A DNA stretch of 64,000 bases, from NCBI GenBank assembly GCA_000004695.1, contig CM000153.2, positions 2,528,001-2,592,000 on the forward strand. The letters are read 5' to 3'. Each line of letters starts with the position of its first letter. The stretch's first letter is position 1. Below the pieces are notes generated by a model. It had not been told where the DNA came from, did no database searches, and saw only the letters and a list, made by a program, of their open reading frames with translations. The translations under genes were made by a program, and so were the position numbers. Positions 59,192-60,331 of the stretch are shown here, piece by piece. This DNA comes from Dictyostelium discoideum. Lineage: Eukaryota.

Positions 59192-60331
59192 CAAAATGTA
59201 ATAACAACACCAACATCAACAGCAACAAAAACTACAGAATTAACAGAATTAACAGAATCAACATCATATGATCCAAATAAATTAGGAGGTGGAATTGATG
59301 AAACACTTAAAATTAATTTAGAAGATTTTAAACATGTATTGGATCCAGAGATGGTACCAATTACAGGATTACCATCATTTATTGAAGTTTGTTTAAATCA
59401 ACTTCACCATTTAACATCATTACCATGGTTAGTGATTGTACCAGTATTTACATTATTCATTCGTTCTGCATTATTTCCACTCTCAATTAAACATCGTATA
59501 AATTCAATGCGTTTACTTGAAATTAGACCACAATTAGATAAATTTAAAGAACAACAAAAAATCAATAGAAAGAATAAAGCATCAATTCAAGTTCGTGCTC
59601 AAACTTCACAAAAGATTACAACTCTATTAAAAGAAAAAGGTTGTCATCCAGTTTTATCCTACATTCTACCAATGGCAAATTTACCATTTCTAATTTCCTC
59701 CATAATTGCATTCCGTGATATGGCTGCAAATTATCCTTCACTCAAAGATGCTGGTATGCTTTGGTTTACCGATTTATCTCAAAGTGATCCAATTTTTGTT
59801 TTACCTGTTATTTGTTCTTCACTTTATTTAATTGCAACTGAAGTAAGTAACAATAATAATAATAATAATATACTAGAGGGTAGGGTGGGGGTGTGGGTAG
59901 TTTGTATGAGAAATTGCGCTTCTCTCTACCCCTTTACCCCTCTAGTATACTACATATCATATAGAGTGTACTAATACATGCTTTTTTTTTTTTTTTTTTA
60001 GTTGGCATTTTCAAAAAATACAAATCCATTAATGGTAGCACTTAAATGGGTATCAAGAGGTATGTCATTATTGTTGATTGCATTTAGTCCAACAATTCCA
60101 AGTATTTGTTATTTATATTGGATACCATCAGGATTATTTACAATTGCACAATCCCTTGCATTCAATTCAAAAAGAGTATGTAAATTTTTAGGTTTACCAA
60201 TATCAATTAAAAGTGGTGATTCAGTCATTAGTTTATTTAATGATGGAGAAAATAAAAAACCTGAAATTAAATATGCACCAGAATTACCATCATCATCAAA
60301 ATCTAAACCAATATTTAATAAAAAGAAATAA
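58982..60331 (+). CDS. Mitochondrial inner-membrane insertase, OXA1/YidC/Alb3 family (OXA1L-like), about 396 aa. Exons: 58982..59842, 60002..60331
   Basis: An N-terminal Asn-rich presequence-like region is present. The conserved core (LPWLVIVPVFTLFIRSALFPLSIKHR…LPMANLPFLISSIIAFRDMAANYPSLKDAGMLWFTDLSQSDPIFVLPVI…) aligns, from memory, with human OXA1L (…[50 protein letters not shown]…). Intron GTAAGT (59843)…tttAG (60001), phase 0. Stop TAA at 60329-60331. Confidence 0.8.
59868..59995. repeat. G/C-rich imperfect palindrome (hairpin-forming element) inside the OXA1-like gene intron
   Basis: tactagagggtagggtgggggtgtgggtag…tttgtatgagaaattgcgcttctct…ctacccctttacccctctagtatactac. The arms are reverse-complementary (TACTAGAGGGTAGGG / CCCTACCCTCTAGTA-like). 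The element is strikingly GC-rich compared with the surrounding ~85% AT intron. Confidence 0.6.

Follow-up and report, generated by a model that had tools for sequence, protein, structure and literature searches.

A lineage-specific GC-rich quasi-palindrome in the intron of an Oxa1/YidC-type insertase gene of Dictyostelium discoideum

The precursors of amoebozoan microRNAs (miRNAs) are 75 to 125 nt long and less AT-rich than their surroundings, and the miRNAs of dictyostelids are nearly all species specific and are gained or lost as whole modules (PMC11014262). Intronic miRNAs exist in D. discoideum, and the two known loci are ddi-mir-1180 and ddi-mir-7102 (PMC6161686). The 34-Mb genome of D. 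discoideum also contains 249 to 459 motifs that are prone to form G-quadruplexes (G4), and 62 to 157 introns carry one (PMC6511855). Thus, such a tract is expected roughly once per 70 to 140 kb and is unremarkable in the 64 kb analyzed here. In D. discoideum introns, G4 motifs are reported to be enriched on the non-coding strand, and a role of RNA G4s in splicing was judged very unlikely (Saad et al., PMC6511855).

Stowaway-type miniature inverted-repeat transposable elements (MITEs) and foldback elements are short and non-coding, have terminal inverted repeats and TA flanks, fold into a hairpin over the whole element, are limited to lineages, and occur in introns. Template switching makes or "corrects" quasi-palindromes, and the AT-rich mitochondrial DNA of yeast has mobile GC clusters.

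The element described here is a GC-rich imperfect palindrome, predicted to fold into a hairpin, in the single intron of DDB_G0284883. It is like the dictyostelid precursors, ddi-mir-1180 and ddi-mir-7102 among them, in its length of 75 to 125 nt, in being richer in GC than its surroundings, in its restriction to one species, in its gain as a "module," and in its position on the sense strand of an intron (PMC6161686, PMC11014262); it is unlike them in the weaker fold of the AX4 allele, in the variability of its arms between strains, and in the absence of small RNAs derived from it in the published lists searched. Compared with the G4-prone motifs of Saad et al. (2019), it reaches the top threshold, with a G4Hunter score of 2.0 (249 motifs genome-wide), and lies in the enriched intron class, but the motif is on the coding strand and is not conserved among strains (PMC6511855). 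Moreover, its G arm is paired with a complementary C-rich arm, unlike in those motifs, which should favor the hairpin over the quadruplex. It shares all of the above-mentioned features with the MITEs and foldback elements, but its target site duplication is ambiguous, the interiors of its arms consist of low-complexity G and C tracts, no second copy was found in the 123 kb compared, and no related autonomous element is known. Finally, like the quasi-palindromes made by template switching and the yeast mitochondrial GC clusters, it is a hypermutable GC-rich palindromic island in AT-rich DNA whose alleles differ by clustered multi-base changes; unlike these, it resides in a nuclear intron and belongs to no known family of copies.

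The hairpin and its host intron

DDB_G0284883 of D. discoideum AX4 encodes an Oxa1/YidC-type insertase. The spliced product of 396 aa is identical to XP_639906.1 and matches the Pfam family PF02096 (60KD_IMP) with an E value of 2.9e-11. Since the spliced product is identical to the database protein, the stretch between the two exons (Table 1) is a genuine GT..AG intron; an intron of an OXA1-like gene had been proposed in the initial annotation. If retained, it would extend the reading frame by 44 codons up to a stop. A literature search with DDB_G0284883 as the query found no paper. The gene is part of the window, that is, the whole 64-kb stretch of DNA that was analyzed, which has about 24% GC, poly-Asn coding tracts, and the short GT..AG introns typical of Dictyostelium.

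The initial annotation had described a hairpin of G-rich and C-rich arms at 59868-59995, in an intron of otherwise about 85% AT. Indeed, the arms were located there, and the segment of 128 nt contains the hairpin plus the part of the intron with the putative branch point and the poly-T tract. A single reading frame of the hairpin is open, and its arms would be translated into low-complexity sequence. The GC content of the hairpin is 47.6%, and that of the remaining 77 nt of the intron is 16.9%, in agreement with the AT content given before. Between an outer stem of 12 bp and an inner stem, GGGTAG/CTACCC (59895-59900/59926-59931), the arms pair with G-U pairs and small bulges. The 5' splice site is 26 nt upstream of the hairpin, and the TACTAAT candidate and the poly-T tract are downstream of it.

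Table 1. Features of DDB_G0284883 and of the hairpin in its intron (positions in the window)
Feature	Position	Strand	Basis or remark
Exon 1 of DDB_G0284883	58982..59842	+	Joined ORF gives XP_639906.1; PF02096
Single intron of DDB_G0284883, 159 nt, GTAAGT...AG, host of the hairpin	59843..60001	+	Frame and database protein are recovered upon splicing
GC-rich imperfect palindrome (hairpin), 82 nt	59869..59950	+	Folding; lowest energy of all 90-nt segments
Left terminal inverted repeat TATACTAGAGGG	59869..59880	+	Perfect 12-bp complement of 59938-59949 (CCCTCTAGTATA)
Canonical G-quadruplex motif GGGTAGGGTGGGGGTGTGGG, coding strand	59878..59897	+	G4Hunter 2.0
Apical region, about 25 nt, with a small inner stem GAGAA/TTCTC around ATTGCGC	59901..59925	+	Folds
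C-rich 3' arm CTACCCCTTTACCCCTCTAGTATA	59926..59949	+	8 nt shorter in AX4 than in wild strains
Putative branch point TACTAAT, outside the hairpin	59969..59975	+	Read from the sequence; tentative assignment
Poly-T tract ahead of the 3' splice site AG (60000-60001)	59982..59999	+	
Exon 2 of DDB_G0284883	60002..60331	+	TAA stop at 60329-60331

The stable fold expected from the initial annotation was confirmed by RNA folding. The + strand of the 128-nt segment folded with -41.1 kcal/mol, compared with -28.6 ± 3.5 kcal/mol (mean ± standard deviation) for dinucleotide shuffles (z = -3.55), and none of the 200 shuffles was as stable; the - strand folded with -34.3 kcal/mol (z = -4.0). When overlapping 90-nt segments on both strands of the 64 kb were folded in a sliding analysis (8470 windows), the hairpin had the lowest energy of all (-38.5 kcal/mol; mean, -8.9; standard deviation, 4.8). 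Its 12-bp perfect stem is the only GC-containing one in the window. The sole other match with a G4Hunter score of at least 1.75 was a C4G15 run adjoining an assembly gap at 4503-4549, and the initial statement that this composition is unique in the window was thus essentially right. An identical hairpin sequence was present in three independent Logan read-run assemblies. That the hairpin is an assembly artefact is ruled out, since it is carried by five independent assemblies.

Some other features of the window were noted. The sequence T12 C4 G15 T5 at 4503-4549, which runs into a run of N and has the highest G4Hunter score of the window (2.4), is probably a gap-edge artefact or a homopolymer. 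At 60361-60465, only about 400 nt from the intronic hairpin, an imperfect palindrome rich in CA/TG has the second most stable local fold (-29.7 kcal/mol, - strand; -27.9 kcal/mol, + strand). This palindrome lies in the short intergenic spacer that separates the OXA1-like gene from the convergent minus-strand gene downstream. Its conservation is partial in the wild strains and weak in D. citrinum, and its 12-mer GTACTAATACAT recurs toward the 3' end of the intron (59968-59979). A tRNA-Phe(GAA) gene at 35537-35610 has flanks that are richer in GC (26 to 30% GC in 33600-36400) and contain minus-strand ORFs of 321 and 140 aa without a Pfam match, as well as a run of N (assembly gap) from about position 34513; the flanks may be the remnant of a tRNA-targeted TRE retrotransposon. 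The long ORF at 30370-33216 codes for an ordinary P-type cation ATPase (E1-E2_ATPase, Hydrolase, Cation_ATPase_N).

Occurrence in strains and related species

Two assemblies of wild D. discoideum, L001 and L002, were compared with AX4 over window positions 55982-63381. They are nearly identical to each other (0.2 to 0.6% difference in exons) and differ from AX4 by 1 to 2% in exons and by 5 to 7%, plus many indels, in intergenic DNA; therefore, they belong to a lineage that is well separated from the laboratory strain. The wild-strain assemblies have the accession numbers GCA_054859385.1 and GCA_054859355.1, and the D. citrinum assembly has the number GCA_054859325.1. Both have the hairpin at the same place, with arms that are longer and better paired. 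The hairpin block is 92 to 98 nt long in the wild strains and 82 nt in AX4, and the whole introns fold with -58.3 (L001), -54.9 (L002), and -41.4 kcal/mol (AX4). No empty D. discoideum allele was seen among AX4, the Logan assemblies, and the two wild assemblies. In the Logan assemblies, three contigs identical to AX4 were found, and exact look-ups with the read-through ORF and P0001 added no further allele.

The D. citrinum and D. dimigraforme orthologues (82 and 74% protein identity, respectively) have an intron at the identical codon boundary, ATE|LAF. These introns are 101 nt (14% GC) and 115 nt (8% GC) long, respectively, and fold with only -8.3 and -8.6 kcal/mol. Like the intron of D. discoideum, both contain TACTAA near the 3' end, but there is no counterpart of the hairpin in either of them, and nothing in them aligns to the hairpin block. 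Without its hairpin part, the D. discoideum intron would have 77 nt, compared with 101 to 115 nt in the hairpin-free introns of the sister species. Absence from orthologous introns, which the initial annotation had listed among the observations that would refute its proposal and agree with a neutral insertion, was therefore observed in both species.

Intron positions were compared further by using 59843-60001 of the window and the sequences L011 (1389-1453), L012 (1467-1542), and L005 (3001-4134). D. purpureum has no intron at the ATE|LAF site, and P. violaceum and C. fasciculata have a single intron 27 codons downstream (TIPS|MVYFYW). The variation of the intron position among dictyostelids points to intron turnover in the orthologues of DDB_G0284883. 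By parsimony over D. discoideum, D. citrinum, and D. dimigraforme, the hairpin appears to have been gained in the D. discoideum lineage, within a preexisting, clade-specific intron; the alternative would be two independent losses.

Pairing and divergence of the arms

RNAalifold gave 31 consensus pairs for the three alleles. Compensatory double changes were found in none of these pairs, 7 of the 31 were broken in one allele, and the covariation term was a penalty of +1.45. AX4 has an 8-nt gap in the C arm and no matching loss in the G arm, and L002 has a deletion of 7 nt in the apical region. When the right arm of an allele is reverse complemented, it is only 61 to 73% identical to the left arm. 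The two strands of the wild alleles form equally stable folds (-49.4 and -48.8 kcal/mol), which argues for a palindrome at the level of DNA and not for an RNA-specific fold. In this comparison, there is no sign of selection on pairing, with the proviso that three alleles give little power.

The arms differ by 8 to 17%, plus indels, between strains. In the hairpin block, L001 and L002 differ by substitutions in 7 of 91 aligned columns, with 8 additional gap columns, whereas the flanking intergenic DNA of the same two strains differs at 9 of 550 sites (1.5 to 1.7%). The divergence of the hairpin block is about five times that of the intergenic DNA next to it. Fisher tests against 9/550 with counts close to those observed gave p = 0.0007 (8/85) and p = 0.008 (6/84). 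Between AX4 and the wild alleles, the difference is 11 to 17% in the hairpin, compared with the 5 to 7% in intergenic DNA. We infer that this hypervariability reflects slippage-prone G/C runs, quasi-palindrome mutagenesis, and GC-to-AT pressure on unconstrained sequence. Despite the variability of the block, no change was seen among the three alleles in the outer 12-bp stem, in the inner stem (GGGTAG/CTACCC), or in the loop word ATTGCGCTTC; this could hint at local constraint, again with the little power of three alleles. The GC-rich block is also kept in all D. discoideum strains sampled under an AT-biased mutation, and this could reflect selection rather than youth.

If the hairpin were a young intronic miRNA or hairpin-RNA module, it should be diced by DrnB/RbdB into G-rich and C-rich small RNAs of about 21 nt and would resemble ddi-mir-1180 and ddi-mir-7102. 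Indeed, the AX4 hairpin as well as the wild blocks have the size of the stable imperfect hairpins (75 to 125 nt) that serve as miRNA precursors in dictyostelids, and in length and GC enrichment it fits what has been described for pre-miRNAs of Amoebozoa (PMC11014262), but neither the mature sequence nor the pairing is conserved among the alleles, and no compensatory change was found in the three of them. With arms as variable as these between strains, there is no stable mature sequence. The AX4 hairpin (-38 to -41 kcal/mol) also folds more weakly than every ddi pre-miRNA listed (-56 to -88 kcal/mol), and the known intronic miRNA loci of D. discoideum sit in other genes, DDB_G0293106 and DDB_G0284713. 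A scan of the whole window with Rfam at the gathering threshold yielded only the tRNA-Phe elsewhere and no family at the hairpin. In a local scan (E ≤ 10), the hairpin had a weak, subthreshold resemblance to generic miRNA hairpin models and to nothing else; the best scores of 24.6 to 28.3 bits were far below the thresholds of 52.7 to 58 bits. Furthermore, arm strings of the GGGUAG/GGGTAG type and the gene identifier had no match in the miRNA data (tables and text) of Liao 2018, Meier 2016, and Edelbroek 2024 or in the main text of Hinas 2007; none of the small-RNA studies that were searched by sequence thus lists the hairpin. In the wider literature, the arm strings occurred only in unrelated primer lists, and the supplements of the G4 study and the miRNA studies had no match. 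Because dictyostelid miRNAs, like the hairpin, are almost all species specific (PMC11014262), its absence in the sister species is compatible with a proto-miRNA. However, the hypervariable arms, the comparatively weak fold in AX4, and the absence from the published lists searched argue against a mature miRNA gene; the intron-encoded small RNA considered in the initial annotation found no positive support, and we regard the young module as quite improbable.

A structure that acts in cis on the OXA1-like gene and modulates its transcription or splicing was also considered, be it a switch between G-quadruplex and hairpin on the coding strand, a means to bring the 5' splice site closer to the branch point, or several clustered G boxes of the GBF type. 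The hairpin does have the 5' splice site on one side and the putative branch point on the other. Its G arm in AX4 contains a canonical motif of four tracts, and GGGTAGGGTGGGGGTGTGGG has the four G3+ tracts with loops of 1 to 7 nt and the G4Hunter score of at least 1.5 that define a predicted G4, with which the complementary arm competes; however, conservation, as expected of a functional G4, was not found: AX4 and L002 have the motif, L001 lacks it on the + strand, and the sister species lack the whole element. GBF-like words, (T/G)G(T/G)G(T/G)G(T/G) according to the consensus in PMC2257962, are found in all of the alleles, but the arm and the strand that carry them change from one allele to the next, a pattern to be expected of G-richness alone. 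If the hairpin were an aid to splicing, one would expect covariation and a need for the structure in the orthologues. No covarying pair was seen in the three alleles and several pairs were broken, the splice signals are outside the hairpin, and the sister species keep and presumably splice introns that have no such element and little structure. The known intronic G4 enrichment on the opposite strand and the low probability given to splicing by RNA G4s also speak against it (PMC6511855). The splicing-regulatory structure suggested initially was not supported by this comparison, and any of these cis-regulatory roles is, in our view, very improbable.

Origin of the element and its significance

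Taken together, the functional interpretations were not supported and insertion was: the hairpin appears to be an ordinary, though well documented, lineage-specific palindromic insertion, recent and neutral. On balance, and with modest confidence, we favor the explanation that it is a D. discoideum-specific, hypermutable DNA quasi-palindrome, a passive and functionless passenger of the intron. It would have arisen in, or inserted into, an existing AT-rich intron after the split of D. discoideum and D. citrinum. It would be transcribed only within the pre-mRNA, where it would pair with itself so that about 82 nt are looped out, leaving the 5' splice site, the branch point, and the poly-T tract free, and it would then be removed together with the intron. 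Since G/C runs and palindromes are prone to mutation in a strongly AT-biased genome, the hairpin would now be decaying fast. Its source may have been a small foldback or MITE-like element with 12-bp terminal inverted repeats and TA flanks or, alternatively, synthesis by break repair or template switching. A direct signature of template switching could not be reconstructed from the three alleles. For the G arm, an origin from telomere-like A-G(1-8) sequence was considered but is not favored here.

With respect to origin, the passive quasi-palindrome overlaps with a further explanation, that is, a member of a dispersed family of MITEs or foldback elements: a non-autonomous DNA element inserted at TA, with terminal inverted repeats of 10 to 12 bp (TACTAGAGGG...CCCTCTAGTA). 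The two differ in that a family predicts multiple copies and a cognate transposase. The element is small, its terminal inverted repeat is perfect over 12 bp and conserved in the three alleles (AX4, L001, and L002), in all of which TACTAGAGGG is invariant, and in the wild alleles the strands fold equally well. The site is filled in D. discoideum and empty in D. citrinum and D. dimigraforme, but the empty site is too diverged to be aligned with the TA-flanked site of D. discoideum. TA is present on both flanks in every allele (CTAGAGGG...CCCTCTAG), and the left terminal inverted repeat can alternatively be read as TA plus CTAGAGGG in all three; since TA is itself palindromic, a target site duplication is indistinguishable from an extension of the inverted repeat, and the flanks are ambiguous in this respect. 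The interiors of the arms are alike by merely 61 to 73%. A second copy was found neither in the 64 kb of AX4 sequence nor in the total of 123 kb compared, and a scan of JGI metagenome contigs for TACTAGAGGG-N30-60-CCCTCTAGTA gave two matches, both of which were unrelated sequences with normal GC content. In the Dictyostelium literature searched, no comparable element was found. Of the MITE proposed in the initial annotation, the insertion-like behavior thus stood, with a filled intron in D. discoideum, empty introns in the sister species, 12-bp terminal inverted repeats, and TA flanks, and membership in a dispersed family we consider unlikely. A link to the miRNA-bearing transposon thug-S was rejected from its description as a DNA transposon with an intron of its own, and an element with its own intron is not a tiny palindrome.

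A more far-reaching possibility, which we hold to be distinctly unlikely, is that the hairpin is a newborn, D. discoideum-specific intronic small-RNA module, i.e., a still hypervariable proto-miRNA or hairpin RNA, or the relic of a mobile element that created the intron. In the latter case, it would be the last GC-rich remnant of an introner-like palindromic element, and the ATE|LAF intron is confined to D. discoideum, D. citrinum, and D. dimigraforme. If either of these were true, the locus would offer a rare view of the birth of a hairpin gene or of an intron in an extremely AT-rich genome.

The hairpin as it stands is of little importance and modest value. The D. discoideum genome has a few hundred G-rich islands, of which it is one, and it behaves as unconstrained, mutation-prone DNA. 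If a genome-wide family were demonstrated, a class of small palindromic elements would be added to those of Dictyostelium, for which the literature searched describes none. The hairpin is a possible starting material for "module gain," the presumed route to new dictyostelid miRNAs. It is also a local mutation hot spot between otherwise nearly identical strains and, therefore, a possible strain marker. The hairpin is a clean, dated case of a GC-rich palindrome gained in an intron within one species lineage.
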